From: Candidatus Woesearchaeota archaeon | Lineage (GTDB): Archaea; Nanobdellota; Nanobdellia; SCGC-AAA011-G17; JACPIM01 | Reading direction: 5' to 3' | Assembly (NCBI GenBank): GCA_016188045.1 | Contig: JACPIM010000006.1 | Coordinates: forward strand, 26,137-90,136 | DNA length: 64,000 nucleotides | Shown here: in pieces, positions 5,463 to 50,744 of the stretch | Layout of the letters: every line of letters begins with the position of its first letter | How positions within the stretch are numbered: the stretch's first letter is position 1 | Made by a program: the position numbers and the translations under genes | Notes under the pieces: model-generated | Seen by the model: only the letters and a program-made list of their open reading frames with translations | Told to the model about the DNA's origin: nothing | Database searches by the model: none

Positions 5463-5463
5463 A

Positions 5464-6000
5464 TTATTTGTAATAAAAATACCCCTTGCATCCATTTGGT
5501 AATTTTGAAGGTTTTCTATGTTTAATCATATCTTGAGAAACTGCTTCGCCTCCAAACCATAAAGGAGAGAAGTCAATTGGAACACCATCAAGTTCTTTTT
5601 CATCTGTTCCTATTTCTAAAGCTTTTGTTAAATTTCCAGGACCATGAACACGTTCTCTCAATCCAACTTTATCGTATATATCTCCAGAAATAAACGTCAC
5701 ACAAGAAGGAAATCCTGTCTCTAGAGTTGCTACTCCTAAAACTTTTTTAGCATGTCTTGTTATAACTATTAAACTGCCAGGAGCATACAAAGTTTCTTTT
5801 GCCATATCTCTATCGTCCTCCCAAGGTGCGACTTCTGTTAATCTTGCATATAATTGAGCTTTTCCTTCGCGCTCTCTAACTAGTACTCTTCCTAATAGCT
5901 CTTTTGCAACTTCTTCAGCAGGCCTTGCAAAAAACTTTCTATCTAATGCCTCGCTTCTTTGGGGAATATAATATTCTTCAATAGATTTATTGGGTACCAT
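5464..6000 (-). CDS. 3-methyladenine (methylpurine) DNA glycosylase, Mpg/AAG family-like
   Basis: FFARPAEEVAKELLGRVLV ... EVAPW ... PGNLTKALEI resembles the MPG N-terminus and core. GC and Arg/Ala content are higher than the surrounding genes. Confidence 0.5.
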   Translation of the reverse strand: MVPNKSIEEYYIPQRSEALDRKFFARPAEEVAKELLGRVLVREREGKAQLYARLTEVAPWEDDRDMAKETLYAPGSLIVITRHAKKVLGVATLETGFPSCVTFISGDIYDKVGLRERVHGPGNLTKALEIGTDEKELDGVPIDFSPLWFGGEAVSQDMIKHRKPSKLPNGCKGYFYYK

Positions 6001-9512: not shown

Positions 9513-10287
9513 AGAAAGGCCAAGCAAAGAGGAGTTGGAGAGATTGTATTGGGAGGAAGGAATGAGTCAAAGAAAGGTAGCTAAAAAATATAGAATGTCA
9601 GATAATACTTTAATTTGTTTAATGAATAAATTAAATATAAAAAGGAGAAAAACAGGAGGCAGTCCAGAAAGGAGTCCCTGGCCAAATTTTGAAAGTTGGA
9701 AAGCTTATGGAGTAGAAAGAGGTTACGAATTAAGTAATCCCGAAAATGTAAAAAAAGGAAATAAAGAAGAAAGGTCTTGGTATAATAAAGGAAGCAAAAA
9801 AAGATGGATATTAAAGTTTGATTTCAATAGAATGAGATTAGATGGAAAATGGGAAGAATTTCAAGAGTGGGAAAGATATGGCTTAGAGAGGGAATTTAAT
9901 AAAAGAAATCTTAACAGTTTAAGAAATAGTGAAAATGCTGAAGAAAGATCTTGGTATTGTAAAGGAAACAAAAAGAAATGGTTCCCCAAATTTGAATTTG
10001 CTGGGTTGAAAAGAAAAAAAAGATCTGTTAAAAGCGGCCAATGGAAAGATTTACAATTTGCATTACAACAAGCTAAATTATTTCTAGAAAAACACCCAGA
10101 ATATGAAGAATTACCTAGAGCTCGAATTATGTATCGGCTCGGTGTTTTTACCCTCGGACATGCAATCTATACATATCACGGTGGTTTCCCTGTTTTTCGG
10201 CAATTATTAAATGAGTATATGGGAAGAACATCTGTTATTGATCAACCTTCATTATTAGAGCAATATATTGGAGGAGAAAATGACTGA
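9505..10287 (+). CDS. HTH DNA-binding protein, paralog 1 of a three-gene family; C-terminal tail DQPSLLEQYIGGEND
   Basis: N-terminal ELERLYWEEGMSQRKVAKKYRMSDNTL resembles a sigma-r4/resolvase HTH. Internal duplicated motif ERSWY(N/C)KG.KK.W..KF.F. The start overlaps the helicase stop. Confidence 0.45.
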   Translation: MVKERPSKEELERLYWEEGMSQRKVAKKYRMSDNTLICLMNKLNIKRRKTGGSPERSPWPNFESWKAYGVERGYELSNPENVKKGNKEERSWYNKGSKKRWILKFDFNRMRLDGKWEEFQEWERYGLEREFNKRNLNSLRNSENAEERSWYCKGNKKKWFPKFEFAGLKRKKRSVKSGQWKDLQFALQQAKLFLEKHPEYEELPRARIMYRLGVFTLGHAIYTYHGGFPVFRQLLNEYMGRTSVIDQPSLLEQYIGGEND

Positions 10288-11053
10288 TTTTCTGCCTATA
10301 GGAACATTCTATGCAAATCTTTCTGGAGCACAGAGAAGAGCGATATTATATGCTATTGAAAAAGGTCTTGAATTAAGGAATTCTTGTCCTTGGATTGCAG
10401 ACGAGTTTAGGCAAGGAAAATCAATATCCGCTCTTGCACAAGATGAAAGAATAAAAAAAAGTTTTAATGGAAGCATAAAAACTTTGTATAGGGCATTAAG
10501 CCTTGCTTTAGGTGGTTATAATAGGGAAGTTTCTTTTTCTGAAATCCAACAATATTCTGGCTTAATTCCAAATGAAGAATATCTATCTTTAATACAAGAG
10601 CATAATAAACAATCAACCAATGAATGGAATAAACAAATGCAGGAAAGAGGCATAGGACTCGCTGCAATGACGCGCAAACAAAGACAAGAGATTGGTAGAA
10701 GAAGTGGATTGAAACAATTGGAGAATAAGATTGGAATTCATGCGCAAACACTAGAAGAAAGAAAACTCATAATAAAAAAAGCATTAGTTGCTCAAGGCAA
10801 GACTCCTTGGGAAAATGACGAGATGAAACATTGTTATGAATTATCTTTACAAGAAAGATTTAGAAAAAGTTCAAGAGTTAACTGGGAAGATATCGCGGTA
10901 TCTGTTAATCAAAAATATCATGCAGGAAAAAGCCTAAGAGATAACAGAGCAGTTGCAAAGGCAGCAAAAAAATGGGAAGAAAGAAATATGCCTAAGCAAG
11001 AAAGAGAGAATTCTTCTCTTTTAGAGCAGTATATTGGAGAGGAAGATGGGTAA
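10268..11053 (+). CDS. paralog 2 of the HTH family (lacks the N-terminal HTH); C-terminal tail SSLLEQYIGEEDG
   Basis: Shares the C-terminal SLLEQYIG tail with the other two paralogs. The start codon is embedded in the previous gene's terminal ggaggagaaaATGa. Confidence 0.4.
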   Translation: MEEKMTDFLPIGTFYANLSGAQRRAILYAIEKGLELRNSCPWIADEFRQGKSISALAQDERIKKSFNGSIKTLYRALSLALGGYNREVSFSEIQQYSGLIPNEEYLSLIQEHNKQSTNEWNKQMQERGIGLAAMTRKQRQEIGRRSGLKQLENKIGIHAQTLEERKLIIKKALVAQGKTPWENDEMKHCYELSLQERFRKSSRVNWEDIAVSVNQKYHAGKSLRDNRAVAKAAKKWEERNMPKQERENSSLLEQYIGEEDG

Positions 11054-11633
11054 AGAAAGACCGAACAGGGAGGAACTAGAAAGATTGTATACAGGTGAAA
11101 AGTTATCTGCTATTCAAATAGCAAAAGGATACGGAGTTAATTTCGCTAGAGTTTATAAATGGATGAAAGGTTATGAAATAAAAAGAAGAACTAAAAGTGA
11201 AGCAGTTAAATTGTATAATTGTAAAAGAATACCTGGAAAAAATGAATTGAAAAAATTAAAAAATATTCCCATAAAAGAAATTGCGATAAAATATGGGATT
11301 AATCAAACAACTGCCAGAAGTTGGTTAGATAGATATGATATAAAAAGGAAGAAGCATAAAAAAAATGTTAAACGAGGTTCATGGCAAAGTTTAGAATTTA
11401 CCTTAGAACAAGCAAAATTATTTTTAGAAAAGCATTCTGAATATGAAGAATTGCCAAGTGCAAAAATACTTTCAAAAAAAGGATATATAACTCTTGGAAC
11501 AATAATAGTTAGGTATCACGGCGGCTTTCCTGTCTTTAGACAAAAGTTAGAAGCATACATGCGAGGCGAGCCAATTCCTGAAAACCCAACAGATCAACCT
11601 TCATTATTAGAGCAATACATTGAAGATAGTTAA
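11034..11633 (+). CDS. paralog 3 of the HTH family; two HTH-like segments and C-terminal DQPSLLEQYIEDS
   Basis: ELERLYTGEKLSAIQIAKGYGVNFARVYKWM and IKEIAIKYGINQTTARSWL HTH-like segments. LEQAKLFLEKHSEYEELP...YHGGFPVFRQ is shared with paralog 1. Confidence 0.45.
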   Translation: MERKMGKERPNREELERLYTGEKLSAIQIAKGYGVNFARVYKWMKGYEIKRRTKSEAVKLYNCKRIPGKNELKKLKNIPIKEIAIKYGINQTTARSWLDRYDIKRKKHKKNVKRGSWQSLEFTLEQAKLFLEKHSEYEELPSAKILSKKGYITLGTIIVRYHGGFPVFRQKLEAYMRGEPIPENPTDQPSLLEQYIEDS

Positions 11634-11635
11634 CC

Positions 11636-11675
11636 ATTTTTCACAACCCTATTTCAACTTTATTATTTTTTTAAC
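11636..11675. repeat. degenerate third copy of the gyrA 3'-end repeat (TTCACAACCCTA...CAACTTTAT)
   Basis: Shares TTCACAACCCTA and CAACTTTAT with the repeats at 12056 and 13509 but lacks the central GAAACACTAG. Confidence 0.3.
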
Positions 11676-11996
11676 TAACATATCTTGATAAATTTTGAAT
11701 GCCTTACGATTTTCTTTCTTGTAAATATAAGGTGTTCCGATATCTTCTTTACATTTAGGGCAACTTAATGTTGGAATTGTTTTCAAAGGTTTAGTTTCAA
11801 GATTAGTCAGATTCTTTGGATAAAAAATTCTATCAAAATAAAGTCTCCGTAAATTGCCAGGACCATCTTTTTGGTAAACAAGAATCTTTTTACCACAAAC
11901 CCTACAAAATAGATCCATCAATCTTGAATACGTTCCCCTTACAGTTTTATATTTATCTTTTTTGAATTCAAAGCCCACATTATAATAAAATAACAA
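11649..11996 (-). CDS. hypothetical Zn-ribbon protein (CxxC ... CxxC)
   Basis: CRVCGKK and CPKCKED cysteine pairs. 115 aa. Confidence 0.35.
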   Translation of the reverse strand: MLFYYNVGFEFKKDKYKTVRGTYSRLMDLFCRVCGKKILVYQKDGPGNLRRLYFDRIFYPKNLTNLETKPLKTIPTLSCPKCKEDIGTPYIYKKENRKAFKIYQDMLVKKIIKLK

Positions 11997-12055
11997 AAGT
12001 ATTTATTAATGTTTTGATTAAACACCATAATAATATCCCAAAAATTATCAGCTAT

Positions 12056-12108
12056 TCTTCACAACCCTAGAAACACTAGCAACTTTATCGTTTTCTTTTA
12101 ATCTTATT
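12056..12108. repeat. displaced in-frame copy of the gyrA 3' end (about 53 nt, roughly 88% identical to 13509..13560); putative attL-like scar
   Basis: The minus strand encodes RLKENDKVASVSRVVKNS-stop, versus the GyrA C-terminus [18 protein letters not shown]-stop. Same orientation as the copy inside gyrA. Confidence 0.6.
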
Positions 12109-12190
12109 AAATTATTCAATAATTATTTAAAGTTATGTACATTAACATGGCCATAAAGTTTATAAATAAGTACATACCGATGTACATAAC

Positions 12191-13447
12191 ATGGAAAAAG
12201 CCAAATTAGAAGAATTTAATCATTGGTGGACAACCAGTAAAGTAGACGAAGAGTTAGCCTTGCCATTCAAAAGAAGTATATATTCAGAAATAGAAGGGCA
12301 CATCAATAAAAGGTTCATATTAGCTTTAGTTGGATTAAGGAGAGTTGGAAAAACAACAATAATATATCAAATTATAAAACAGTTACTAGAAAAAAACGTC
12401 GATAAGACAAATATTTTATTTTTTTCATTTGATGAAGTTTCAGCTGAATTAAGTGAAGTCCTAGAAACGTTCAAAGAAGTCCATAACAAAGACTTCAGAA
12501 AAGAGAAAATCTATGTTTTTCTTGATGAAATTCAGAAATGTAATAATTGGGAAAACGAACTAAAAAAATATTATGATCTTTATCCCAAACTAAAATTTAT
12601 AATAAGCGGCTCAGAATCTCTTTTCATAAGAAAAAAAACTAAAGAAACTCTGGCAGGAAGAATTTTTGAATTTGCTCTAAATCCATTCGCTTTTAGAGAA
12701 TATCTTAGATTTAATGAAATTAGTGAAGATGAATTTAAATATGAAACAAAAATAAAACCACTTTTTATTAAATTTGCAGAGAAAGGCGGTTTCCCAGAAA
12801 CATTTTCTTTTGAAACCGACAAGGAGTTTAAGGAATATATTAGGTCTCTAGTAGTTGATAAAATAATTTATAAGGATATTCCGAGAATATTTAAATTAGA
12901 AGACCCAGACTTCTTAAGGGTTCTTCTAGAATTAATTGCTACAAATCCAGGAATGTACATCGATTACCAATCCCTAAGTAAGCAATTTGAGAAAGATAGA
13001 AGAGTAATAAAAAGTTATATCACTTATCTTAAAGAAAGTTTTTTGATAACACTGTTAGGTAATTATAGGAAAGGGAGCATAATAACTTTAAGAAAGAAAA
13101 AAAGAGCCTATCCTGCAGATAATGCTTTGATATATCTATACAAACCAACCATTGATGAAGATTTTTTTGGAAAAATGGTTGAAGTTTTAGTAGTAAATAA
13201 ACTTAAAGCTTCATCTTTCTGGAAAAATAGTGGAGAGATAGACATAGTTCATGAAGATATCCCAATAGAAATAAAATATCAAGAAAAGATAAACTCAGAA
13301 GATTTTAAGCCAATAAAGGAATTTATGAAGAAATTTAATAAAAAAGAGGGTATAATGATAACTAAAAATGAAGAAAGAGAAATAAAGTTTGAAAAAGGCA
13401 TAATAAAGTTAATTCCTGTTTGGAAATGGCTTCTTGAAGAAAAATGA
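12191..13447 (+). CDS. AAA+ ATPase of the archaeal AAA_14/DUF4143 family
   Basis: Walker A LALVGLRRVGKTTII, Walker B VFLDEIQ, and a C-terminal DUF4143-like region. Preceded by a TATA-like TTTATAAATA at 12154-12163. Confidence 0.75.
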   Translation: MEKAKLEEFNHWWTTSKVDEELALPFKRSIYSEIEGHINKRFILALVGLRRVGKTTIIYQIIKQLLEKNVDKTNILFFSFDEVSAELSEVLETFKEVHNKDFRKEKIYVFLDEIQKCNNWENELKKYYDLYPKLKFIISGSESLFIRKKTKETLAGRIFEFALNPFAFREYLRFNEISEDEFKYETKIKPLFIKFAEKGGFPETFSFETDKEFKEYIRSLVVDKIIYKDIPRIFKLEDPDFLRVLLELIATNPGMYIDYQSLSKQFEKDRRVIKSYITYLKESFLITLLGNYRKGSIITLRKKKRAYPADNALIYLYKPTIDEDFFGKMVEVLVVNKLKASSFWKNSGEIDIVHEDIPIEIKYQEKINSEDFKPIKEFMKKFNKKEGIMITKNEEREIKFEKGIIKLIPVWKWLLEEK

Positions 13448-13498: not shown

Positions 13499-16400
13499 TC
13501 AACCGTTTTTCATAACCCTAGAAACACTAGCAATTTTATCCCCTTCTTTTAATCTCATTATTATAACACCCTGGCTGTTTCTCCCAACTTTAGATATATT
13601 ATTTACCTCAGTTCTTATTATCTGTCCTTTAACAGTTATACACATTATTTCATCGTAATCTTTCACAGTTTTAATTCCAACAACTTTTCCATTTTTCTCA
13701 GTTACATTAATATTCTTAACCCCAGAACCACCTCTTTTAATTAATCTATATTCACCCATACTAGTTCTTTTACCATATCCATTCTCAGTAACAGTTAGCA
13801 AATCTCCATCTTCTAAAGCAACCTCCATTCCAATAACCCCATCATCTCTTAATCTAATTCCTCTTACCCCAGTTGCATTTCTTCCCATTACTCTAACATC
13901 TTCCTCATTAAACTTGACAGCTTGCCCGTTTTTAGTTCCAATTATAAAATTTAGATACCCAGGAGTTAATCTAACTTGAACTACTTCATCATTATCATTA
14001 AGATTAATTGCATTTATCCCGCCTTTTCTAGGATTGCTATACTCTGAAAGCAAACTTTTTTTCAAAATTCCTTTTTTAGTAACAAAAATTAAAGAGTGTT
14101 TGTCATCAAATTCTTTTATAGGCAAGACAGCACTTACTTTTTCATTTTCTCCTAAATGCAATAGATTAATCAAAGCCCCGCCTTTTGCATATCTTGAAGC
14201 TTCAGGAATTTCGTAAGCCTTTAGCCAATGAACTCTCCCTTTATTAGTAAAAAACAACAATTGACTTAGATTGCTTGTAATAAATAATTCTTGAACCACA
14301 TCTTCTTCTTTAGTCGTAGTAGCTCTAATACCAGTTCCGCCTCTTCCTTGGCTTCTATAAAGTTCTAAAGAAGTTTGTTTTGCATATCCAGAAGAAGTAA
14401 TAGTCACAACAATATCTTCTTCATTTATCAAATCCTCATTAGTTACAACTTCCTCAATTTGATTTGATATTAATGTTTTTCTTTCATCTCCATATTCATT
14501 CTTGATTTCACTTAATTCGCTTTTTATTATTCCGAATATTTTTCCAATATCAGCTAAAATATTTTTCAATTCTTCTATCAGTATTAACAAATGTTCATAT
14601 TCTTCTTGTATTTTTCTGGTTTCTAAGGAAGTCAATCTTTGTAATCTCATCTCCAAAATAGCATTAGCCTGTATTTCTGTTAGCTCAAATCTCTGAACTA
14701 ATCCCATTCTCGCAACATCAACACTTTCGCTTCTTTTTATTAATTGAACAACAGGATCAATATTACTTAGTGCGATTCTTAAACCTTGCAATATATGTGC
14801 TCTTTTTTCAGCTTTATCTAATTCAAATTTGGTTCTTCTGATAACAACCGTTTTTCTATGAACAATAAATTCCTTAATTAATCCCTTTAAGTCTAAAACT
14901 TTAGGTTCATTGTTTACTAAAGCCAAATTAATAACACCAAACGTAGTTTGTAAAGAACTGAGTTTATACAGTTGGCTTAATATCAATTCACCATCAAAAT
15001 TTTTCTTTAATTCAATTACAATCCTCATTCCCTTTCTGTCGCTTTCATCTCTTATATCTGAAATACCTTCAATTCTTTTATCATGAACTAACTGAGCTAT
15101 TCCCTCAATCAATAATGATTTATTTACCATATAAGGAATTTCTGTTATGATTATCTTATCTTCCATAACTTCTGCCTTGGCTCTTACAGTTAGTTTTCCC
15201 CTTCCGCTTTCATAAGCGCTTTTAATTCCATTTTCTCCTAAAATAATACCGCCAGTAGGAAAATCAGGTCCTTTAATGAATTTCATTAACTCTAAACTAT
15301 TGCATTCAGGATGATCTATTGCAAAAATAATAGCATCACAAACTTCTCTGATATTATGCGGTGGAATATTAGTAGCCATTCCAACAGCAATACCACTAGA
15401 TCCGTTAATTAATAAATTTGGTAATTTACTTGGTAATACGGTTGGTTCTTTTTCACTATTGTCAAAATTATTCACCAAATCAACTGTATCTTTATCAATA
15501 TCAATTAAGATTTCTTCAGCCATTTTGCTTAATTTGGCCTCTGTGTATCTGTATGCAGCAGCAGCGTCTCCATCTACGGAATTATGTACAAAAACACCGC
15601 AATCTAAAAGAAAATTATGATTTTCATTAACTGTGATATCATACACATCTTCTATGTAATCTAAAAATTTAATGCTTACAACATAGTGATTGTATTCTTT
15701 AGCCAATACAACCATTTCATTAATATTTTTAAAGTATCTTATGACATTGTTAAATCTTGGAAAACAATTATTTGTTCTAAATTTATTATAATTTTCTTCG
15801 TTTATATTATCTTCACCAAGAGTAGTAATTAGCCTGTTAACATAATACAGTATTTTGTTCTTTATTATACTTTTTTTATAATTATCATTTTTCCAGTTCA
15901 TCTTATGGGCCATAGCGGCTTTTTGTGCAATATCTTTCATAAAATTTGGTTTATTTTTTAATCTTAACAAATTACTCTTTCTAATGCCGCCTATAACTTT
16001 TTTCCTGAAATTTTCATTGGCCCACAATTTCTTCATTTTTTCGATTTGTAGTTTTTTATACTCTTCATTTTGCCAAGCCTTTTTAGCCATTTCACTTAAA
16101 TGATTATGATTTTCATTAATGAACTTCAATCTGTAATCATTTTCTTTCCAAAGTTTTTTGCTTCTTTCAGAAATCAATTTACGTGCTTCTGAATTATTTC
16201 TATAGAACTCTTTAATGCTCTGTGCTCTTTTTTGTATGACTTCAGGATGTTCTAAAATATTTTTTTTTTGTTTTTCAGATATCTTATTTTTTATTTCTGG
16301 TTTATTTAGTGCCCTTTTGATGCTTTTAATTATAGAATCTCTTTTTTTCTTATCACTCCACATTTTTTTAGAAAATTCTGACATGCATTTTCTTCTTTCA

Positions 16401-17500
16401 GGATGTTTATTATAATTTTCTTTAATTTTATCTGAAAGTTTATGCCTTAATTCTGGATTTTTCCAAAGTTCTTTTCTTTTTTGAGAAGATTTTTTTATAA
16501 AGTTAAGATCTTTGTTTCTTTCAATAAGCCTTTTTCTTAATTTTTCTATATGTTCCGGGTTATTTTTATAGAAGTTTTTAACACCTGCCCTTTGTTTTAA
16601 TCTAAAACCCAAACCCTTCCAATTTTCTTTTATTTGAGTGTTGTGAATTTTTGTATGATCATTCCAACTTAGTCTCTTTAAATTATCTGGACTATTATCG
16701 AGCTTATTAAAATTAACATGGTGTTTTACAGGCCCATCGTTTATAGAATAAAGGCCCCTTTCTAAATTATAGGCATCAGCAATTTCATGGACAAAAAAAT
16801 ATCTATCTTCTTTGTTATCCTTTATCATCAAATAATCTTTTAATTCAGTATTGCCCCTTATCGGACTAAGTTTAAAGTAACCTGGCATTAAACTATCATC
16901 TGGGGTTAAATATCTCGCTTCTTTATATTTTAAATTTTTTAATAAAAATCTGTGATCTGGTGTACATCTTATTATCTCGCCGCCATCTAATGTTATCTCA
17001 ACTATTTCTGAATCTTTCTTTGTTAATCTTGGATTCTTAGCTTCCCCAACTACAATTTTACCATCTTTATTAATAGAATAAACATAAAATATTTCATCTT
17101 TTTTATAAAGTTCACAAAGTTCTTTAAAACTTTTAGAAGTTCCATCTAATAATTTAATTTTTGTATCCCCTGTAAAACAACCAAAATTTCCCTGTCCTTT
17201 AACTAAAGGATATCTTAATGAAAAATTCTGAGCCATTCTGACTAAAGCATCATAAACAGACATATCGCCGTGGGGATGAAATTTTGCTAGAACAGTCCCA
17301 ACGACATTTGCACTTTTCTTAAATGCTTTATTATAATCTAAACCTAATTGTTTCATAGCATAAAGAACTCTCCTATGAACTGGTTTTAATCCATCTCTGA
17401 CATCAGGAATAGCTCTTGCTACAATAACACTCATAGCATAGTCCATATAGGACTGCTTCATCTCATCTTCAATTAGTCTTTCTTGAATTTCTTCTGGCAT
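13499..17500 (-). CDS. gyrA: DNA gyrase subunit A, containing a 533-aa intein
   Basis: N-extein ...[33 protein letters not shown] | C-extein [17 protein letters not shown]..., then GyrA-box-like repeats to the C-terminus. The total of 1333 aa corresponds to about 800 aa of GyrA plus the intein. Confidence 0.85.
13509..13560. repeat. gyrA 3'-terminal coding sequence that is duplicated at 12056..12108 (attR-like)
   Basis: See the alignment with 12056..12108. Lies within the last about 20 codons of gyrA. Confidence 0.6.
15581..17179 (-). other. GyrA intein (gyrA-a site) with an HNH endonuclease motif and an array of about 12 basic 25-aa repeats
   Basis: Begins [13 protein letters not shown] after GNFG and ends CGVFVHN before SVDGD. 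HNH-like [27 protein letters not shown]. Repeats of the type K..W.NPE...K.S.K.KE. Confidence 0.7.
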
Positions 17501-26941: not shown

Positions 26942-27036
26942 AAAATAATTATCATTGGAGGTATCAGAATAGCGGTGGGTTGATAAGAATCCAAATAAAA
27001 TGGAATTAGTGGGTTGATAAGGGTTTACCCTTATAA

Positions 27037-27056
27037 CCGTAGGTGTCTATATGGCA
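27037..27056 (+). promoter_or_regulatory. shared 20-nt leader CCGTAGGTGTCTATATGGCA spanning the SD-like AGGTG and the start codon of spt4
   Basis: Identical apart from one base (CCGCAGG...) to the 20-mer at the S27ae start at 27638..27657. Confidence 0.4.
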
Positions 27057-27239
27057 ACAAAAAAAGTTTGCAAAAAATGTAAGTTGTTTGTTACAGGTCC
27101 ACAATGCCCAATTTGTCACGGTAATGAATTTACAGATAATTGGAAAGGAAAGCTAGTTATACTAGACCCAACCAAATCAGAGATAGCTAAAAAAATAGGT
27201 ATAAACGCAAAAGGGGAATATGCTATTAAAGTAAGATAA
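27051..27239 (+). CDS. spt4: transcription elongation factor Spt4 / RNAP subunit E''
   Basis: CKKCKLFVTGPQCPICHG zinc ribbon plus SEIAKKIGINAKGEYAIKV, matching archaeal Spt4. Confidence 0.8.
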   Translation: MATKKVCKKCKLFVTGPQCPICHGNEFTDNWKGKLVILDPTKSEIAKKIGINAKGEYAIKVR

Positions 27240-27240
27240 A

Positions 27241-27543
27241 ATGTTAAACCTTAAAATATTAAATGAAATTCAAAGAAAATTATTAGAAAGAAAAGAATTA
27301 GAGATTGAAGCAATCTTTGACGGTCCAACTCCTAAGAAACAAGATTTATTAAAAGAAATTGCTTCATTAACAAAATCAAAAGAAAACTTAATTGTTTTAA
27401 AAAGAATAAACCAACTTTATGGCGCTTCAAAGGCAAAAATTTTAGTTTATATTTACGGTTCAGAAGAAGCATTTAAAAAAACAGAGCCAAAGGAGAAAAA
27501 ACCAAAAGAGAAAAAAGAACAACCAAAACAAGAAACTAAATAA
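27241..27543 (+). CDS. rps24e: ribosomal protein S24e
   Basis: LLERKELEIEAIFDGPTPKKQDLLKEIA...AKILVYIYGSEEAFKKTEPK is an S24e-like pattern, in the conserved spt4-s24e-s27ae order. Confidence 0.7.
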   Translation: MLNLKILNEIQRKLLERKELEIEAIFDGPTPKKQDLLKEIASLTKSKENLIVLKRINQLYGASKAKILVYIYGSEEAFKKTEPKEKKPKEKKEQPKQETK

Positions 27544-27637
27544 AATGTAATTAATGGATTAATAATGGCTTACCATTATAACCAGAGGTAATTTAAAGGT
27601 AGTTCATAAGAACTAAATAAAAGGGAAGTAATAGAAA

Positions 27638-27657
27638 CCGCAGGTGTCTATATGGCA
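27638..27657 (+). promoter_or_regulatory. shared 20-nt leader CCGCAGGTGTCTATATGGCA at the S27ae start
   Basis: See 27037..27056. Confidence 0.4.
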
Positions 27658-27837
27658 AAGAAAAAAGTTAAAAACAAAAAACCAAGCAAAAAATATTCAA
27701 AATACAGAGTAGAAGGAAATAAATTAATTAGAGGTAAAACTTGCCCCAAATGTGGTGCTTCTTATTTTTTAGCAGAACACAAAAATAGGGTTTACTGCGG
27801 TAATTGTAAGTACACAGAATTTTCTCATAAAAAATAA
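27652..27837 (+). CDS. rps27ae: ribosomal protein S27ae (eS31)
   Basis: KVKNKKPSKKYSKYRVEGNKLIRGKTCPKCGASYFLAEHKNRVYCGNCKYTEF has the S27a zinc ribbon. Confidence 0.8.
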   Translation: MAKKKVKNKKPSKKYSKYRVEGNKLIRGKTCPKCGASYFLAEHKNRVYCGNCKYTEFSHKK

Positions 27838-32471: not shown

Positions 32472-33579
32472 CTTTCCTCCTCATAAAGTCAGCGATATCA
32501 TCTTCAAGTTGTTTTCTTCTCATTTTTAATTCTTTTTCTCTTTCTTTTAATTTTTCTCTATATTCTTTTAACTTCGTCTCTTCCAGTAATAGTCCTTCTC
32601 TTTTTCTTTCATAAGATTCTTTGCTTTTCTCAGCTTCTTCCATCATCTTATCTACTTTATTTCTTTCAATGGCCATCTCATCTTTATTATCCTCGATTTG
32701 ATCCTCTCTAGTTATTAATTTTTCTTCTTTCTCAGTTAAACCTTTCTCTTTTATTTTTATTTTATCTTCTTTTTTCTTTATTTTTTCATAGTCTCTATTA
32801 ATCTCGTTTTTTTTATTATCTAAATTTTTAAGTTCTTTAGACATATTATCAATCTTCTTCCTTTCATCAATAATATCTTTCTTCTCTTTTCTTATTTTTT
32901 TCAGTATTTTCTTATTCTTCTCTCTTAATTTGTTAATTCTTATTCTCTCAACCTCAATTTCTTCTTTAGAATCTTCAATAACTTCTTTCTCTTTCTCTAT
33001 TCTTTTTTTCTCTTCGTTAATTTCTTTTTTTGTTTTTTTGGCTTCTTTCACATCCAGTTCTAATTTTTCTTCTTTTTTCTTTAATTCTTCAATTCTTTTA
33101 TTTTGTTCTTCTTCTTTTCTAGCTACCTCTCCTTCTCTTTTGTTTAGTTGTTTAGTAATATTTTTCTCATACTCTACCAATTCTCTTTCTTTCTTATCCA
33201 ATTTCTTTAATTCGGGATCAACAATTTTTCTGGCAAATTCTAGAGCAATTGGATGTTTTGGTTTTTCTTTTAATTCAATTAATTCAGCATATCTTTTATG
33301 ATCTCTCAATTTGAAATCCATTATTGAAATTAAGAATAAAATTACAGAAATCACTAAAACACCGATTAATTCAATATATGTTCTTATGTTTTCACTTAAA
33401 TTAGGCAGTCCAATGACTATATAAGGAAATCCTAAAAACAAGATTAAGCTTATTATTATTGGTTTTCTGAATAACTCATTAATGCCTTCTTTTTTTAATT
33501 TTTCCCAGTAAAAAGCAACAATAATAAATATAACGCTTACTAGATATTTTTGCAAACTTAAAAATAATTCAACTGCCAT
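32464..33579 (-). CDS. membrane-anchored long coiled-coil protein (K/E-rich)
   Basis: Three N-terminal TM helices followed by about 250 aa of heptad-like KE-rich sequence. Confidence 0.45.
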   Translation of the reverse strand: MAVELFLSLQKYLVSVIFIIVAFYWEKLKKEGINELFRKPIIISLILFLGFPYIVIGLPNLSENIRTYIELIGVLVISVILFLISIMDFKLRDHKRYAELIELKEKPKHPIALEFARKIVDPELKKLDKKERELVEYEKNITKQLNKREGEVARKEEEQNKRIEELKKKEEKLELDVKEAKKTKKEINEEKKRIEKEKEVIEDSKEEIEVERIRINKLREKNKKILKKIRKEKKDIIDERKKIDNMSKELKNLDNKKNEINRDYEKIKKKEDKIKIKEKGLTEKEEKLITREDQIEDNKDEMAIERNKVDKMMEEAEKSKESYERKREGLLLEETKLKEYREKLKEREKELKMRRKQLEDDIADFMRRKDE

Positions 33580-33712
33580 ATTTAATCCTTAAGTATATTT
33601 TTGCTATTATAAAGTAGTATATAAATCTTATTATTTACTTTATAAAAGTTATTATTCATTTTAAAGCAAAAAGCTTAAATATATAATAATATTATAGTAT
33701 TACCAGAGCAAT

Positions 33713-33979
33713 ATGGCAAAATCAAATACTCTAAGTTTCACAGTACCAGATGAATTAAAGCTTAAATTAGATGTAATCACTAAAATAGGTTATTATGATT
33801 CAATGTCAGAATTCTTAAGAGATGCAATTAGAACACTATTATCTCAAAATAAGGATTTAAGGATTTCTATAGCATATCAATTGTTTAAAGATAAAAAAAT
33901 AGGCCTTGGAAAAGCATCTGAAATAATAGGCGAAAACATAAAGGAAACTAAGGAATTATTTGAAAAAAGAGAAATTTAA
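33713..33979 (+). CDS. ribbon-helix-helix (CopG-like) protein
   Basis: LSFTVPDELKLKLD ... YDSMSEFLRDAIRTLL resembles an RHH antitoxin/regulator. Confidence 0.55.
   Translation: MAKSNTLSFTVPDELKLKLDVITKIGYYDSMSEFLRDAIRTLLSQNKDLRISIAYQLFKDKKIGLGKASEIIGENIKETKELFEKREI
33927..33979. repeat. 3' end of the RHH gene, duplicated at 35041..35092 (about 90% identical)
   Basis: TAGGCGAAAACATAAAGGAAACTAAGGAATTATTTGAAAAAAGAGAAAT versus TAGGCGAAAATATAAAAGAAACTAAGGAACTATTTAAAAAAAGAGACAT. Confidence 0.6.
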
Positions 33980-34045
33980 CTGTGGTTACATAAAGAACCA
34001 TATGGTAACCAAAAAGTTTATATAGTAATTTAAGTTACCATAATT

Positions 34046-34648
34046 ATGGAAAAAATAGAAAAAACCATCAAACCAAAAATAGAAAAATTAGAACTAAATG
34101 AAGCGTATATAAAAGTAATTTATTGGTTTTTTTCCTTTCCAACAAGGTCAATAAGTCTATCAGAACTCGCTAAAGAACTTAAGATATCTAAAAGAAGAGC
34201 AAGTATTATAGTATCCTCTCTGATATCTGAAGGATTCTTAATAAAAGAGGAGATAGGCAGAAGTTGGAGACTCTCTTGTAATCAGCACCACATTTATAAT
34301 TATACAAGGAAAATTAGTTATAATCTTAGCTTAGTTTATAGTTTATTATATGAACTTAAACTGATCGATGAAATTTATAAGATTAGTGGTCAACCAAAAG
34401 CGGTAATTTTATTTGGAAGTTATAGAAAGGGAGATGATATAGATAAAAGCGACTTAGACCTCGCTGTTGAAGTTATCAATGATGAAGAAATAAAGATAAT
34501 TAATCTTGGGAAAATACCAGAATTAGGTTACAGGAAAAATATTCCGGTCAACCTGCATATTTTTTCTAGAAAAAAAATTGATTTAAACCTATTCAATAAT
34601 GTGGCTAATGGTATTGTGTTAGAGGGATTTTTAGAGGTAAAAAAATGA
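34046..34648 (+). CDS. wHTH-nucleotidyltransferase fusion protein
   Basis: N-terminal wHTH (LSELAKELKISKRRASIIVSSLISEGFL) and the NTase motif ILFGSYRKGDDIDKSDLDLAVEV. Confidence 0.55.
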   Translation: MEKIEKTIKPKIEKLELNEAYIKVIYWFFSFPTRSISLSELAKELKISKRRASIIVSSLISEGFLIKEEIGRSWRLSCNQHHIYNYTRKISYNLSLVYSLLYELKLIDEIYKISGQPKAVILFGSYRKGDDIDKSDLDLAVEVINDEEIKIINLGKIPELGYRKNIPVNLHIFSRKKIDLNLFNNVANGIVLEGFLEVKK

Positions 34649-35043
34649 GATACAAGAGACCAGATAAAAAAAATTCTTTAAGTCTTGTAGAGGCTTCAAA
34701 AAAAGAAATAAATTTTGCACTTTCTTTAGAGGTCAATGAACAATCAGGTCCAACAATTATAAGAAATATTTATGAAAGTTTTAGGATGTTAGGGGATGCA
34801 CTACTTATAAATCAAGGCATTGAATCAAAGGACCATGTAGAATGTATAAACGCCCTTTTAAAATTGAAAGTTAATACAACAAGGCCAATAAATCTTATTA
34901 ATAATCTAAGGATACTTAGGCATAATATAAATTATTATGGTTATAGGCCGAGATTGGAAGAAGTTCAAGAAGCTATTTCTATTGCTAAAACCTGTTTTAT
35001 CCAAATTTTTAATGAAGTATGTAAAATAATAAAAACCAAATAG
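34645..35043 (+). CDS. HEPN-like protein, partner of the NTase
   Basis: An alpha-helical 132-aa protein with RILRHNINYYGY resembling the HEPN R-x(n)-H..Y motif. Overlaps the NTase stop. Confidence 0.4.
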   Translation: MRYKRPDKKNSLSLVEASKKEINFALSLEVNEQSGPTIIRNIYESFRMLGDALLINQGIESKDHVECINALLKLKVNTTRPINLINNLRILRHNINYYGYRPRLEEVQEAISIAKTCFIQIFNEVCKIIKTK

Positions 35044-35092
35044 GCGAAAATATAAAAGAAACTAAGGAACTATTTAAAAAAAGAGACATAGT
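35041..35092. repeat. displaced copy of the RHH gene 3' end, immediately after the HEPN stop
   Basis: See 33927..33979. Same orientation. Confidence 0.6.
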
Positions 35093-35403
35093 TAGCGTTT
35101 TTCTTCTATAAGATTAGCAAGATATCCTTGCCTTGATTTATACTCTTTATTTCTATTTATAAATAAATACATAAAGATAATAACAATTGCAATACAGAGA
35201 AGTTTAATAATTATATCGTAATCACTTCCTTTATCTATTTTAAAAAACCATATATCGTTTGTAAAGCAAAGCCACCAACAACACCAGCCAATGCCCCAAA
35301 TACAAAAAATAAGCTTTCAGTTCTTTTACTTTCAACATTATTCCATTCATCAACTAACTCATTACAATCCATATCTATATACTTTTTTGCCAACTTAATT
35401 TAA

Positions 35404-36030
35404 TTAGTCTTCTCCGCCAAAGTCTTCTTCTTTATATTTGAATTCTTCATCAGTTTTTATTATTCCTTTATTTTTCAGATACTCTTTGGCTAAAACATAA
35501 AAAAATAAACCTAAACTTTTTTTACCCTTATTATTGCAAGGCACTACCAAATCAATAAAATTGCTTTCATTATTAGTATCACATATTGCAACTACAGGAA
35601 TTCCAATTTTAACAGCATCATTTAAAGCATTTTTATCCAGCCAAGGATCAACTACCACCAATAACTTCGCCTCGGCAAATATCTCTAAAATAGGATTAGT
35701 CAACATTCCAGGAGGATATCTCCCAGCAATACATCTAACACCGGTAGCTTTAGCAAACATATTAAGAGCATCCCAGCTATTTTCTCTCCTTCCAACAATT
35801 AATGTATCCTCAGGATTATATTTAGCTAAAAACTTTGCAGCCAAACCAATTCTGTCATTTATTTTTTGTAAATTTAAAACAGCTAATCCGTCTGGCCTTA
35901 TTTTATATATGAATTGACTCATATATTTGGTTCTAAACTTAGTTCCTATGTGAACTCCAGCTTTCAAATACTGATTTACATCAACGAGTAATTTCTCTTC
36001 TACCATAAAACAATTCACTAGAAAAACCAT
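35404..36030 (-). CDS. rps2: ribosomal protein S2 (uS2)
   Basis: LLVDVNQYLKAGVHIGTKFRTKYMSQFIYKIRPDGLAVLNLQK matches the S2 N-terminus. The true start is probably an internal Met (MVEEK). Confidence 0.8.
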   Translation of the reverse strand: MVFLVNCFMVEEKLLVDVNQYLKAGVHIGTKFRTKYMSQFIYKIRPDGLAVLNLQKINDRIGLAAKFLAKYNPEDTLIVGRRENSWDALNMFAKATGVRCIAGRYPPGMLTNPILEIFAEAKLLVVVDPWLDKNALNDAVKIGIPVVAICDTNNESNFIDLVVPCNNKGKKSLGLFFYVLAKEYLKNKGIIKTDEEFKYKEEDFGGED

Positions 36031-49517: not shown

Positions 49518-49997
49518 TTAAACCTTTTTTCTCTCAAAATTTAAGGCTTTTTTAGCTTCTCCAGGAGTCATTCCCATAACTCTGCCAAAACTAGCCAAAT
49601 CTTTTGTAGATCTTAATTCATATCTATCTTTAGCCCCGCTTAAAATAACCATTTTAACTTTGTATTTCCTGCATAATGCAACATTTTGCATCATCTTTCC
49701 TAATATCACGCTTCTATTTTTGCTTTTTAAAACATCATTAAAATTAAATCCTATCACAATATCGTTTTTTCTGGCCAACTCACATAGCACTTGATTTAAT
49801 CCGGAATCTCTTGAATGCATAAAATCTTTAGTTCTTGTTTTTTCAGGGCTTAGAAATATATCAATTTTTTTATTTTCAACAATTTTCCTGTTTTTACCAT
49901 CATCGCCCCCAACTTCAATTTTAAAATCTTTAAAAGTATAAAATCTAGTAAAACCAAGCATTTCCCCATTATACTCAAAATCAATTATGTCTATCAT
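49518..49997 (-). CDS. RNase P protein component 3 (Rpp30)-like, short form
   Basis: VILSGAKDRYELRSTKDLASFGRVMGMTPGEAKKAL resembles the Rpp30 C-terminal half. Confidence 0.35.
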   Translation of the reverse strand: MIDIIDFEYNGEMLGFTRFYTFKDFKIEVGGDDGKNRKIVENKKIDIFLSPEKTRTKDFMHSRDSGLNQVLCELARKNDIVIGFNFNDVLKSKNRSVILGKMMQNVALCRKYKVKMVILSGAKDRYELRSTKDLASFGRVMGMTPGEAKKALNFERKKV

Positions 49998-50000
49998 TTG

Positions 50001-50354
50001 TTATAACCTTCTAATTCTAATTTTGCCTTCTGTTACTACAATAAAACTTGATGACAATCTATTTGATAATTGGCTAATAATTTTATAAACATATTTTTGC
50101 CTTTGCAAAGGTGAATCTTGTTTTAACCTTAATAAGATAACACCAGAAGATGGCTCCTTAAGACGAAAAATAAATTCACCAAAATCTTTATCGTTGGTTA
50201 TTAAAATCCTTTTTTTATTTTCTGCATATTTAATTACTTCCATATCAGAAGCCTTAGGCATAATATCGCCAACATAAACTGCATCATGTTTTCGATCTAA
50301 AAGAAAAAGTACTAATTTTTTACCAGCACTTTCATCTACAAGAAACTTATGCAT
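50001..50354 (-). CDS. DUF5615 (Mut7-C/PIN-like) toxin-type protein
   Basis: MHKFLVDESAG...ILITNDKDFG is the pattern of DUF5615, which partners with DUF433. Confidence 0.5.
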   Translation of the reverse strand: MHKFLVDESAGKKLVLFLLDRKHDAVYVGDIMPKASDMEVIKYAENKKRILITNDKDFGEFIFRLKEPSSGVILLRLKQDSPLQRQKYVYKIISQLSNRLSSSFIVVTEGKIRIRRL

Positions 50355-50360
50355 TTTTAA

Positions 50361-50594
50361 TTATGCAAGCGGAAAGACATCCTCTCCTTTAATCACATCA
50401 GCAACATAATCTAAAGCGGCTTTTATATCATCTTCTGTTAAGTTAGGATAATCCTCAAGTATTTCTTCTTTTGTCATGCCTTGTGCTAATAATCTTATAA
50501 TGGCATCAACAGGTATTCTTGTACCCTTTATTAAAGGTTTGCCTACCATAATTTCAGGATTAATAATAATTCTTTTATTTAATGCTTGTTCCAT
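50361..50594 (-). CDS. DUF433 antitoxin-type protein
   Basis: PEIMVGKPLIKGTRIPVDAIIRLLAQGMTKEEILEDYPNLTEDDIKAALDY matches the DUF433 signature. Confidence 0.6.
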   Translation of the reverse strand: MEQALNKRIIINPEIMVGKPLIKGTRIPVDAIIRLLAQGMTKEEILEDYPNLTEDDIKAALDYVADVIKGEDVFPLA

Positions 50595-50744
50595 AGTATT
50601 ATACTTCTTATTTATACTTATAAAGATATCGCTAATTTTGTATTAAATCAATTATGTCTATCACGATTTAATTAGTAAGATGGTTATTTATTAATCTTTT
50701 TATAAAACACTAATTTTTTAAATAATAACATATTTATCTTTACT

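Follow-up and report, generated by a model that had tools for sequence, protein, structure and literature searches.

Chromosomal toxin-antitoxin modules are patchily distributed between strains and usually come without a mobility gene, and how they spread has long been puzzling. [quoted passage not shown] Repeats of 46 bp reported at such genes overlap 2-15 bp of gene ends and arise by no known mechanism (PMC2853133). The locus described here lies in a 64-kb stretch of DNA, which was analysed as a whole and is called the window. It resembles the restriction-modification insertions (Nobusato et al. 2000, Gene 259:99; PMC2853133) in that a small, here presumably addictive, module stands without a transposase or integrase between direct repeats, variable in length from tens to hundreds of bp, which are single in insert-free genomes and often cover the 3' end of a gene, and in that other modules substitute for it allelically at one locus (PMC2853133). 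It differs in cargo, which is MNT-HEPN, DUF433/DUF5615, AbiE-like, GNAT, RHH/PIN or an ATPase, and in hosts, which are DPANN and other archaea, whereas zero archaeal cases survived the screen of Furuta et al. (PMC2853133). A further difference is that many independent events are found for one cassette family with a near-constant unit size. Kobayashi's idea that DNA breakage by the cargo itself drives insertion would transfer poorly to RNase-type toxins.

The target gene encodes an 88 amino acid RHH + UPF0175 protein (33713..33979, forward strand; Pfam: RHH_1 E=2e-4, above the cut-off, and UPF0175 E=3.4e-6) and is syntenic with ribosomal protein uS2 across Woesearchaeota. A repeat search of the window aligned 33925..33975 with 35039..35089, both on the forward strand and in direct orientation, with 46 of 51 nt identical (90%) at a spacing of 1114 nt. 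The sequence-only reading had set the edges of this repeat a little differently, at 33927-33979 and 35041-35092 with 44/49 identities. It had also let the distal copy start at the stop codon of the HEPN gene, and this TAG (35041-35043) is indeed contained in the copy's first 5 nt. The proximal copy represents the final 17 codons of the RHH gene and translates as IGENIKETKELFEKREI-stop, with the stop codon (33977-33979) directly after it. The distal copy reads IGENIKETKELFKKRDIVSVFLL-stop in the same frame, lies outside every called ORF and is a non-coding remnant of the 3' end of RHH.

The repeat is far above chance and not of low complexity. It is purine-rich, yet mixed stretches such as TAGGCG and ACTAAGGAA are present among others, and the local alignment score of the two copies is 77, compared to a mean of 23.6 and a maximum of 33 in 100 shuffles. 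Realignment thus disposed of the low-complexity explanation that the earlier reading had raised, and the opposite orientation that would have spoken against an insertion is not seen either. Direct-repeat pairs at a comparable level number eight in the window, and all of them represent paralogy or a flanked cassette. An assembly artefact is unlikely, because the two copies differ and the structure is present in four independent assemblies.

Compared with the related locus L006, the proximal copy differs at 4 of 51 positions and the distal copy at 6 of 51, and the proximal copy is the nearer one to three relatives. All five differences between the copies lie on the distal copy's own branch; three of these changes are GC>AT and three of the five are synonymous. 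The distal copy is a decaying relic, while the proximal copy keeps the RHH gene intact. The relic reads ATA-GTT-AGC where ATT-TAA would be expected, so either a later rearrangement removed the stop or the duplication ended 1-4 nt short of it. A similar order of gene body, C-terminal segment, inserted ORF of about 1 kb and displaced duplicate of the C-terminus is known from the fungal mitochondrial mORFs (in atp6, atp9, cox2 and nad3 of Allomyces and Glomus; PMC3630166), which bring a replacement C-terminus with them. There the foreign C-terminus is the proximal one, and the distal one is native and most similar to relatives, whereas in the window the proximal copy is closest to the relatives and the cargo lacks a homing endonuclease. 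A foreign replacement 3' end of this kind was rejected on both grounds.

The insert between the copies (33980-35038; 1059 nt, about 1.06 kb) contains a 66-nt promoter/operator and two overlapping ORFs, in agreement with the earlier claim that it carries the NTase-HEPN module only. Its left end, the operator and promoter (33980..34045, forward strand), is a block conserved in about 70 homologous cassettes. The parts of the operator palindrome are GGTTAC (33984-33989), TGGTAACC (34003-34010) and GTTACC (34034-34039), with a fold z-score of -2.0. An archaeal BRE/TATA element, AAAAAG TTTATATA (34011-34024), lies inside the palindrome, and the ATG of the nucleotidyltransferase follows 22 nt later.

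The first ORF encodes a 200 amino acid wHTH-nucleotidyltransferase (34046..34648, forward strand), an MNT-like presumed antitoxin and presumed autorepressor. It matches the Pfam families NTP_transf_2 (E=4.9e-7, 30.5 bits with a cut-off of 21) and Polbeta (E=9e-7), while its match to the NCBIfam MntA model (E=3.8e-7, 30 bits) stays under the cut-off of 60; residues 13-74 show weak wHTH matches in Pfam. The motif G[GS]-x9-13-D-x-[DE] is present as LFGSYRKGDDIDKSDLDLAV. The family motif GSYRKGDD...SDLDLAV is invariant, with G, S and D-x-D invariant in an alignment of 39 sequences.

The second ORF encodes a 132 amino acid protein (34645..35043, forward strand), the presumed toxin, whose start overlaps the nucleotidyltransferase stop (ATGA) and whose own TAG sits within the distal repeat copy. 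Its Pfam HEPN match reaches E=0.06 only, and its family profile gave no meaningful match to PDB sequences. The single-sequence AF2 model (pLDDT 81.4) was compared with the PDB using Foldseek, and nearly all top matches are HEPN proteins, such as 2hsb, 3o10, 1wol and MntA-HepT complexes, at TM 0.5-0.68 and weak E-values of 2e-3 to 0.3. The partner of the nucleotidyltransferase is therefore modelled with a HEPN fold, for which support at the sequence level is poor. In the family motif NLR-x-LR[H/N]NINYYGY, R89, R92 and Y97 are invariant and H93 is common, not invariant; the spacing departs from a clean Rx4-6H.

The closest described pair is the type VII system HepT/MntA (Yao et al. 2020, PMC7641770), which likewise consists of two overlapping genes, with a GS...DxD nucleotidyltransferase beside a HEPN-fold protein, and MntA-HepT complexes are among the structural matches of the HEPN protein of the window. 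Unlike MntA, the nucleotidyltransferase of the window carries an N-terminal winged-helix domain, and its gene precedes the HEPN gene. Its partner has R-x2-R-[H/N]-x3-Y instead of the clean Rx4-6H, and matches to the curated models are below the cut-offs. By analogy with HepT/MntA, the nucleotidyltransferase would neutralise a HEPN RNase and repress its own promoter, and the pair would therefore be addictive once acquired.

Ribosomal protein uS2 (35404..36030, reverse strand) is the conserved convergent neighbour of the RHH gene and bounds a variable spacer. We found 85 RHH homologues with 55-97% identity, nearly all of 87-88 amino acids and ending in ...REI/REL. RHH and uS2 are convergent neighbours at 17 Woesearchaeota loci, with a smallest gap of 85 nt, and most of these loci have no NTase/HEPN pair. 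The RHH 3' end is present once, and NTase/HEPN absent, at L012/L004 (RHH 86% identical), at L020, which has the 85-nt spacer, and at 13 other loci; a second RHH 3' end was looked for in 15 other loci and found in none. At L006-L011, where RHH is 97% and uS2 96% identical, the same site holds a non-orthologous MNT-HEPN pair with 24% and 29% amino acid identity. In a strain with 92%-identical flanks that carries such a pair, similarity to the window ends precisely at the stop codons of RHH and uS2. The cassette is an insertion between RHH and uS2. The spacer is hypervariable in all lineages, and the sequence just 3' of the RHH stop differs in four of four close relatives. The comparison with empty sites that the sequence-only reading had proposed does yield relatives without the pair, but the RHH empty sites belong only to lineages that are 65-86% identical. 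A recent filled/empty pair in near-identical strains was not found, and look-ups of the exact proteins (RHH, its relatives at 97% and 93% identity, and rpp30) led to nothing but filled sites or truncated contigs.

Outside this locus we collected 80 homologous cassettes from metagenomes. At the DNA level they match the window only over 33976/33983-35041, neither RHH nor uS2 is found near any of the 80, and the repeat edges in the window lie within 8 nt of the limits of this common unit. The repeats delimit a mobile unit. Repeats at other NTase/HEPN pairs had been proposed as a check, and a direct repeat of 20-72 nt, each with its own locus-specific sequence, flanks about one sixth of the homologous cassettes, while about five sixths have no detectable flanking repeat. 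The repeat at L053 (48/50 identical) covers the 3' end of uS7 and that at L111 (52/55) the 3' end of AMMECR1, where all three changes in the relic are non-synonymous. Further repeats were found at L078 (40/45), L068 (34/36) and L100 (about 72 nt), and repeats of 20-40 nt at L107/L108, L042, L114 and L117. This one cassette family provides at least nine insertions that arose independently and whose junctions can be read.

The spacing of the repeats around the homologous cassettes is 1105-1188 nt. In the cases scored in an anchored test, the start of the second copy falls at -8 to +15 nt relative to the last base of the HEPN stop; the exception is L114, where it lies 83 nt past the stop. The observed scores in this test are 44, 39, 36, 30, 19 and 18, and for the cross-locus null (n=730) the 99th percentile is 12 and the maximum 18. 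Comparable repeat pairs number 51 in 415 kb around the NTase cassettes versus 0 in 178 kb of Woesearchaeota RHH/uS2 loci. The left ends of the cassettes are fuzzy, lying 8-58 nt ahead of the promoter unit, and no defined end sequence was found among them, so that conserved cassette termini were rejected. The promoter unit is tandemly duplicated in most homologous cassettes, and the cassettes of the window and of L049 appear shortened at the 5' end when compared with cassettes carrying two such units. For the uS7 target of L053, the nearest relative reaches only 84% identity and differs in the region downstream, so that no empty site was found.

Other cargo shows the same architecture, and four events are found within the window. 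The parallel with a gyrA/ATPase locus that the earlier reading had drawn holds: the 3' end of gyrA (copy A, the functional and proximal copy, 13499..13560, reverse strand) is repeated as a relic (copy B, 12048..12109, reverse strand) over 62 nt with 84% identity, and TGA is aligned in both. Between copies A and B lies an ATPase gene (12191..13447, forward strand) with the Pfam domains AAA_14 (E=3.5e-35) and DUF4143 (E=3.9e-15). Downstream follow a small Cys-rich, Zn-ribbon-like ORF (11649..11915, reverse strand), which is the cargo of an earlier insertion and matches no Pfam family, and a second relic (copy C, 11630..11651, reverse strand; TAGGGTTGTGAAAAATGGTTAA), of which 19 of 22 nt are identical to copy A. 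The TAA of copy C overlaps that of a convergent gene whose end is at 11633. The stop marks the end of copies B and C alike, and each of the three gyrA copies has private changes. The gyrA case cannot be generalised in the same way as the NTase-HEPN cassette, because no homologues of the ATPase or the Zn-ribbon ORF were found across the 766 kb of collected loci. A cluster-member look-up also gave no close relative of ScpA.

A further case in the window concerns the RNase P p30 gene (49518-49997), whose first codons (49978..49996, reverse strand) are the functional copy of an exact 19-nt repeat. The inserted toxin-antitoxin pair (50001..50594, reverse strand) consists of DUF433 (50361-50594) and the PIN-like DUF5615 (50001-50354), as annotated by Pfam, and upstream of it lies the relic of the rpp30 5' end (50645..50663, reverse strand), which is identical at 19/19 positions, has GTG for ATG and reads MIDIIDLIQN-stop. 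Elsewhere, the signature was found at an AbiEii-like pair (L049, 51-nt repeat with two changes, both synonymous), a DUF2283 pair (L050, 100/101), a different HEPN+NTase pair (L040, 93/96), a GNAT pair (L047, 50-nt repeat) and an RHH/PIN pair of Thermoplasmata (145/149), hence at several other toxin-antitoxin types as well as at the ATPase. The duplications range from 19 to 175 nt overall, and their boundaries are within a few nt of start or stop codons in most cases. Old junctions have been re-used exactly by new cassettes at gyrA (twice), L049 and L050. Long-target-duplication insertion thereby extends to archaea and to toxin-antitoxin systems.

Four properties by which Furuta et al. recognised such insertions are found here as well: the repeats are longer than 30 bp, they are single in insert-free relatives (read across a variable spacer and in relatives more distant than near-identical strains), they enclose less than 20 kb with the whole module and without a mobility gene, and they are not a tRNA or att site. 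The explanation we favour, and hold to be probable, is that a self-contained toxin-antitoxin cassette of about 1.06 kb was inserted after the RHH stop with a long target duplication by a process that does not depend on the cargo. On this view, some 51-55 nt of target sequence were duplicated when the cassette entered the tiny spacer behind the RHH stop. The process would operate in compact archaeal genomes, would not be encoded by the cassette, and would place promoter-to-stop cassettes at ORF boundaries with duplications of 19-175 nt. For the chemistry of the break and the source of the DNA we infer three steps: staggered single-strand cuts, tens of nucleotides apart, would break the chromosome; end joining would capture incoming linear DNA; and fill-in synthesis of both overhangs would produce the duplication. 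Selection would then retain only those insertions in which the duplication restores the gene end that was broken and the cargo withstands loss. Such restoration by a long duplication shows how insertions can be tolerated where genomes have hardly any intergenic DNA. We attribute the clustering of boundaries at ORF ends to such selection, given spacers of 0-20 nt, and a homology-guided or site-directed process could equally account for it. Random fragment capture alone does not explain the close, fuzzy cassette ends, of which the right one is mostly within 15 nt of the HEPN stop.

A homology-guided process would take the form of a cassette that arrived already joined to a piece of a donor RHH 3' end. 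The vehicle could be a circle, excised by recombination between an earlier repeat pair, or linear DNA anchored by homology on one side. It would integrate through one crossover or through homology-facilitated illegitimate recombination; both ways leave the homologous segment duplicated on the two sides and require no recombinase or special break. Repeat boundaries exactly at gene ends and the re-use of junctions (gyrA B/C, L049, L050) are accounted for directly, and long-duplication insertions are found mostly in naturally competent bacteria (Furuta et al., PMC2853133). Synonymous changes, as at L049 (2/2) and RHH (3/5), would be expected of a copy derived from a functional allele; the relic of L111 contradicts this, and the pooled synonymous codon changes (7/17) are not significantly above neutral expectation, being too few sites for telling the models apart. 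Homology-assisted integration also predicts that the distal copy is closest to the relatives, and the comparison with L006 shows the reverse. Moreover, a cassette reaching a target for the first time would still have to use some other mechanism, and the 80 homologous cassettes are spread over many unrelated sites. We consider this account unlikely for the RHH locus.

Integration with a target duplication by cargo-independent break repair, our preferred reading, also has to be weighed against a site-specific recombinase acting in trans, of the integrase/Xer type or an integron integrase, with the repeats as attL/attR or the insert as an integron-type cassette. Direct repeats flank insertion sequences, casposons and integrase-borne elements too, and integrative elements typically duplicate gene 3' ends. 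Here, however, neither a transposase nor a recombinase gene was found within the insert by Pfam or NCBIfam, and casposase, terminal inverted repeats and att core are equally lacking; the window contains no tRNA that could have served as a target and no Rfam match. The duplications of those elements are short and fixed, in contrast to 19-175 nt here. The cassette is accordingly not an insertion sequence or DNA transposon. Nor is it an integrase-mediated element, as the repeats are unrelated between loci and the junctions of different loci share no core sequence. A tyrosine recombinase gene does lie about 600 nt from the L111 cassette, while most loci have no recombinase inside or adjoining. Integron cassettes are known from Archaea, with integrons and attC arrays in Nanoarchaeota MAGs (bioRxiv 10.1101/2022.02.06.479319), and resemble the cassettes studied here in having one or two genes, often toxin-antitoxin, and in varying between strains. 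The cassettes described here differ from them in that they have their own promoter, stand singly at dispersed housekeeping loci (9 of 10 tested flanking neighbours are housekeeping genes) and not in attI arrays, and have target-derived repeats. No attC-like hairpin follows the HEPN gene, as judged from the DNA fold of 35030-35130 (z = -0.34), and by this general fold measure the cassette is not an integron cassette. A recombinase in trans is therefore very unlikely. The scan of viral contigs contained no copy of the cassette.

Less probable still is that no mobile event took place and that the distal copy stems from a local partial duplication of RHH or from a second paralogue, with the NTase-HEPN pair merely lying between. 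The hypervariable RHH-uS2 spacer with its differing post-stop sequences would fit such local change. Against this, the repeat edges agree to within 8 nt with the extent of the unit that the 80 cassettes in other contexts have in common, homologous cassettes show this geometry with other target sequences, and two RHH 3' ends occur at no other Woesearchaeota locus examined. Finally, insertion by a reverse transcriptase in trans, comparable to the processed copies made by LINEs, can be set aside as the least credible account: a right end usually 0-15 nt from the HEPN stop, a left end that varies by about 50 nt, the 5'-truncated look of the window and L049 cassettes and the variable length of the target duplications would suit it, but the cassettes contain the promoter and the upstream operator, neither of which would be part of an RNA transcribed from that promoter, no A-tails were found at the cassettes and no reverse transcriptase was seen at the loci examined, and cargo in both orientations to the target is equally explained by insertion at the DNA level.

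Beyond the single locus, we tentatively suggest that DPANN and some other archaea possess a dedicated route which inserts promoter-to-stop cassettes, mainly toxin-antitoxin, at ORF boundaries with 19-175-nt duplications, a generalisation that may well not hold. Such a route could consist of a trans-acting machinery or of a repair pathway coupled to DNA uptake. In one variant the wHTH-nucleotidyltransferase, through predicted binding to the repeated GGTAACC/GGTTCT sites at the left end, may itself join in the integration. If true, a dedicated archaeal route would be the long-missing means for the transposase-free movement of chromosomal toxin-antitoxin and defence modules. The flanking repeats provide a simple computational marker of recently gained cassettes in DPANN metagenome-assembled genomes, and by repeat identity the recent events are those with 100/101, 19/19 and 48/50 identical positions.

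In the window, whose G+C content is 30%, the repeat search found a 51-nt repeat in direct orientation (46/51 identical) at 33925-33975 and 35039-35089. The proximal copy comprises the final 17 codons of an 88-aa gene (33713-33979) that matches the Pfam families RHH_1 and UPF0175. The distal copy begins at the stop codon of a HEPN-like ORF, translates in the RHH frame as IGENIKETKELFKKRDIVSVFLL-stop and is without the expected ATT-TAA. This confirms the duplication of the RHH gene's 3' end claimed by the sequence-only reading, with edges moved by about 2 nt. The RHH tail and the downstream spacer gave a local alignment score of 77, compared to a mean of 23.6 and a maximum of 33 in 100 shuffles; the repeat sequence is purine-rich yet not simple. 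Additionally, a 14-nt perfect inverted repeat links 34806-34819 (TATAAATCAAGGCA) in the HEPN coding region with 35129-35142 (TGCCTTGATTTATA) in the spacer just past the relic copy, where about 0.02 such inverted repeats are expected by chance.

The interval between the copies (33980-35038) holds a control region and two protein genes. In the 66-nt control region an archaeal BRE/TATA (34011-34024, AAAAAG-TTTATATA) is bracketed by a GGTAACC/GGTTACC palindrome. The 200-aa protein combines a winged-helix N-terminus with a minimal nucleotidyltransferase (NTase) domain carrying the GS...DxD motif, and matches Pfam NTP_transf_2 and Polbeta and, weakly, NCBIfam MntA. The start of the 132-aa protein overlaps the NTase stop (ATGA). 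Its Pfam HEPN match has an E-value of 0.06 only, and the HEPN family profile found nothing among the PDB sequences. A structure search with its single-sequence AlphaFold model (pLDDT 81) returned almost only HEPN structures, MntA-HepT complexes among them. The conserved motif of the 132-aa family, R-x2-R-[H/N]-x3-Y, is unlike the textbook Rx4-6H. We therefore treat the pair, by architecture and fold, as an MNT-HEPN type toxin-antitoxin module with putative activity. In most NTase cassettes, e.g. at the compared loci L052, L093, L068 and L111, a promoter/operator unit of ~33 nt (TGGTAACC-AAAAAGTTTATATAGT-...GTTACC) is tandemly duplicated at the left end, with a degenerate upstream copy; in those of the window, L049, L046 and L047 there is a single unit with a fragment.

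The 88-aa RHH/UPF0175 protein is conserved in Woesearchaeota and Nanoarchaeia, nearly always with 87-88 aa, and its homologues (n=85, 55-97% identity) nearly all end in REI/REL. In 17 genome loci its gene is convergent with the ribosomal protein uS2 gene, and the stop-to-stop spacer is between 85 nt (L020) and 2.1 kb long, with unrelated genes by lineage. L012/L004, with an 86% identical RHH, has neither NTase nor HEPN. The strain group L006-L011, with RHH 97% and uS2 96% identical to the window's and flanking DNA about 92% identical, carries another pair of wHTH-NTase (169 aa) and HEPN (137 aa), 24% and 29% identical to the window pair. DNA homology between the window and L006 ends at 33977 (RHH stop) and restarts at 35395 (uS2 stop). 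No second RHH 3' end was found in the RHH-uS2 loci compared. The pair-less loci and the homology breaks at the two stops show that the NTase-HEPN segment at this site is an insertion, as the sequence-only reading proposed; it carries this module only. L006 also has an extra 121-aa ORF (5443-5808, about 360 nt) between a 371-aa coiled-coil gene and RHH, which is missing in the window at 33576-33581; the homology blocks on either side share 6 nt at this breakpoint, which marks a further indel of gene size at an ORF boundary.

Scanning metagenomes with aligned NTase homologues yielded 80 loci (53-74% identity), with neither RHH nor uS2 near the cassettes. The unit common to cassettes in many contexts coincides within 8 nt with the interval between the repeat copies, because the DNA homology of these loci to the window starts at the earliest at 33976-33983 (one A-rich outlier apart) and ends at the latest at 35041. 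By comparing, locus by locus, the sequence preceding the NTase with that following its HEPN gene, we found locus-specific direct repeats flanking homologous cassettes: 50 nt (48/50, spacing 1128) at L053, 55 nt (52/55, spacing 1188) at L111, 45 nt (40/45, spacing 1150) at L078, 36 nt (34/36, spacing 1118) at L068, ~72 nt with gaps (spacing 1182) at L100, 40 and 21 nt (spacings 1139 and 1126) at L107 and L108, 20 nt (spacing 1173) at L042, 21 nt (spacing 1162) at L114 and 22 nt (spacing 1105) at L117. Anchored-test scores were 44, 39, 36 (window), 30, 19 and 18, where the null of other loci's downstream segments (n=730) has a 99th percentile of 12 and a maximum of 18. Roughly one sixth of the independent cassettes have a detectable flanking repeat. 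In the cases scored in the anchored test, copy 2 starts between -8 and +15 nt relative to where the HEPN stop codon ends; at L114 it starts 83 nt past the stop. Copy 1 ends 8-58 nt upstream of the conserved promoter/operator block, so the cassette ends are tight, not fixed.

The duplicated targets of the flanked cassettes are ordinary genes. The neighbours of these cassettes have housekeeping functions, and a single Xer-like recombinase lies near L111. The repeat covers the final 13 codons of uS7 and another 11 nt at L053 and the last 17 codons of the AMMECR1 gene at L111, where the relic carries three non-synonymous changes and still has the original TAA; the gene itself now stops at a junction-derived TGA. 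At L078 the target gene end went from EFSVAK-stop to EFK-stop. L108 and the otherwise identical L107 (4940-4982 / 4940-5015) differ by a 10-nt deletion in L108 that removes the HEPN stop, and their sequences diverge completely 21 nt into copy 2; this cassette-repeat junction is therefore rearranged again. Different MNT-HEPN cassettes also occur in tandem, since L102 (10-1962) has a window-type pair and, directly behind it, one of L006 type (54% and 50% identical to that of L006).

Other small cassettes in the NTase loci are bracketed by long repeats as well, and the insertion signature recurs at many targets independently of the cargo. These are an AbiEii-like NTase pair (51-nt repeat, reaching into the 3' end of a 589-aa gene that now ends in ...EIGS-stop instead of ...EIGYN-stop), a DUF2283 pair (101 nt, 100/101), another HEPN+NTase pair (96 nt, 93/96) and a GNAT pair (50 nt). 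A Thermoplasmata RHH-UPF0175/PIN pair lies between the copies of a 149-nt direct repeat as well (L032, 1258-1406 and 2460-2608, 145/149). Comparable repeat pairs numbered 51 in 415 kb around NTase cassettes versus 0 in 178 kb of Woesearchaeota RHH/uS2 loci. The L032 pair consists of an RHH/UPF0175 homologue (117 aa) and a PIN-like 162-aa gene in an island of other toxin-antitoxin pairs, whereas the Woesearchaeota 88-aa protein is a conserved orphan adjoining uS2.

The window has three further repeat-flanked cases besides the RHH site. In the gyrA/ATPase case, with which the sequence-only reading drew its parallel, the gyrA 3' end (13499-13560) occurs again at 12048-12109, past an AAA_14/DUF4143 ATPase gene. 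A third gyrA 3'-end copy (11630-11651, minus strand, 22 nt, 19/22 identical) lies exactly where a small Zn-ribbon-like ORF stops. The TAA of this copy and that of the convergent gene ending at 11633 overlap, which implies that the ancestral spacer after gyrA had zero length; two serial insertions after the gyrA stop are likewise implied. In the fourth cassette (50001-50644, minus strand), apparently a recent event, a DUF433 + DUF5615 (PIN-like) toxin-antitoxin pair has entered the RNase P p30 gene (rpp30) at its start codon and lies between 19-nt exact direct repeats (49978-49996 and 50645-50663). In this case a gene 5' end was duplicated, and the upstream relic copy has GTG in place of ATG and reads MIDIIDLIQN-stop. 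The gyrA ORF itself (13499-17500, minus strand, 1333 aa) has a large insertion (... VFVHNS) resembling an intein that includes an additional domain.

The window cassette has no terminal inverted repeats, no attC-like hairpin after the HEPN gene and no recombinase gene inside the insert; no tRNA or Rfam family match was found in the window, and no cassette in viral contigs. Cis-encoded machinery is absent. The proximal and distal RHH copies show 4 vs 6, 5 vs 7 and 6 vs 9 differences to three relatives, and all five differences between the copies fall on the distal copy's own branch, three of them GC>AT. This pattern fits a duplication in place followed by neutral decay of the relic. The ~10% divergence of the relic suggests an event of roughly the same age as the split from the L006 lineage.

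The site combines a defined cassette with a duplicated target and a relic in decay. Capture at staggered breaks is the explanation that we prefer and infer, with moderate confidence when taken together with these findings, the recurrence and the missing machinery. Breaks tens of nt apart would capture incoming DNA and the overhangs would be filled in; in a genome with 0-20-nt spacers, selection would keep only duplications that rebuild the cut gene end, and would also retain addictive cargo. The main rival is homology-assisted integration, in which a circle or one-anchor fragment carries a piece of the same gene. The clustering of repeat boundaries at most a few nt away from stop or start codons and the exact re-use of old junctions by new cassettes (gyrA twice, L049, L050) would be more natural under it, but it does not account for first arrivals at new targets and predicts the wrong copy as native at RHH; we regard it as unlikely. 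A fungal mORF-type event, in which the mobile element carries a foreign replacement C-terminus (PMC3630166) and the distal copy is therefore expected to be native, was rejected at RHH, as all three relatives resemble the proximal copy more than the distal one.

Insertion with long target duplication was described by Kobayashi's group for bacterial restriction-modification genes, with repeats of variable length (30 to over 400 bp), among them 46 bp repeats overlapping gene 3' ends, no mobility genes and allelic substitution by other modules at one locus; their screen gave no archaeal case, and how such insertions arise is not known (PMC2853133). Our literature search found no report of it for HEPN/MNT, other toxin-antitoxin cassettes or archaea, and we therefore file the RHH-site feature under this phenomenon as a variant. 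It differs in its cargo, in the domain of life and in the many independent events for one cassette family. The duplication at RHH is real and the sequence-only reading is supported; taken further, it points to DPANN archaea gaining cassettes repeatedly and without a recombinase. Long target duplication is known yet mechanistically unsolved, and the DPANN cassettes give unusually many readable junctions.

Two further groups of similar segments lie in the window. After a helicase-like 1155-aa ORF, three consecutive overlapping genes (9505-11633, plus strand) encode 260, 261 and 199 aa, the first and third being paralogues. Each ends in a similar segment of ~31-34 nt (10240, 11006 and 11592; ...SLLEQYIG(G/E)E..), which also holds the ribosome-binding site and start of the next gene, and the helicase-like ORF ends alike (...KIGGEDG). 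Two neighbouring small Zn-ribbon genes, Spt4-like (27051-27239) and S27ae-like (27652-27837), are alike in their upstream regions and first codons (26985-27068 and 27530-27669), with repeats of 54 nt and 34 nt (83-91% identical, offsets 545 and 601) that may reflect a shared promoter/leader or an old duplication.
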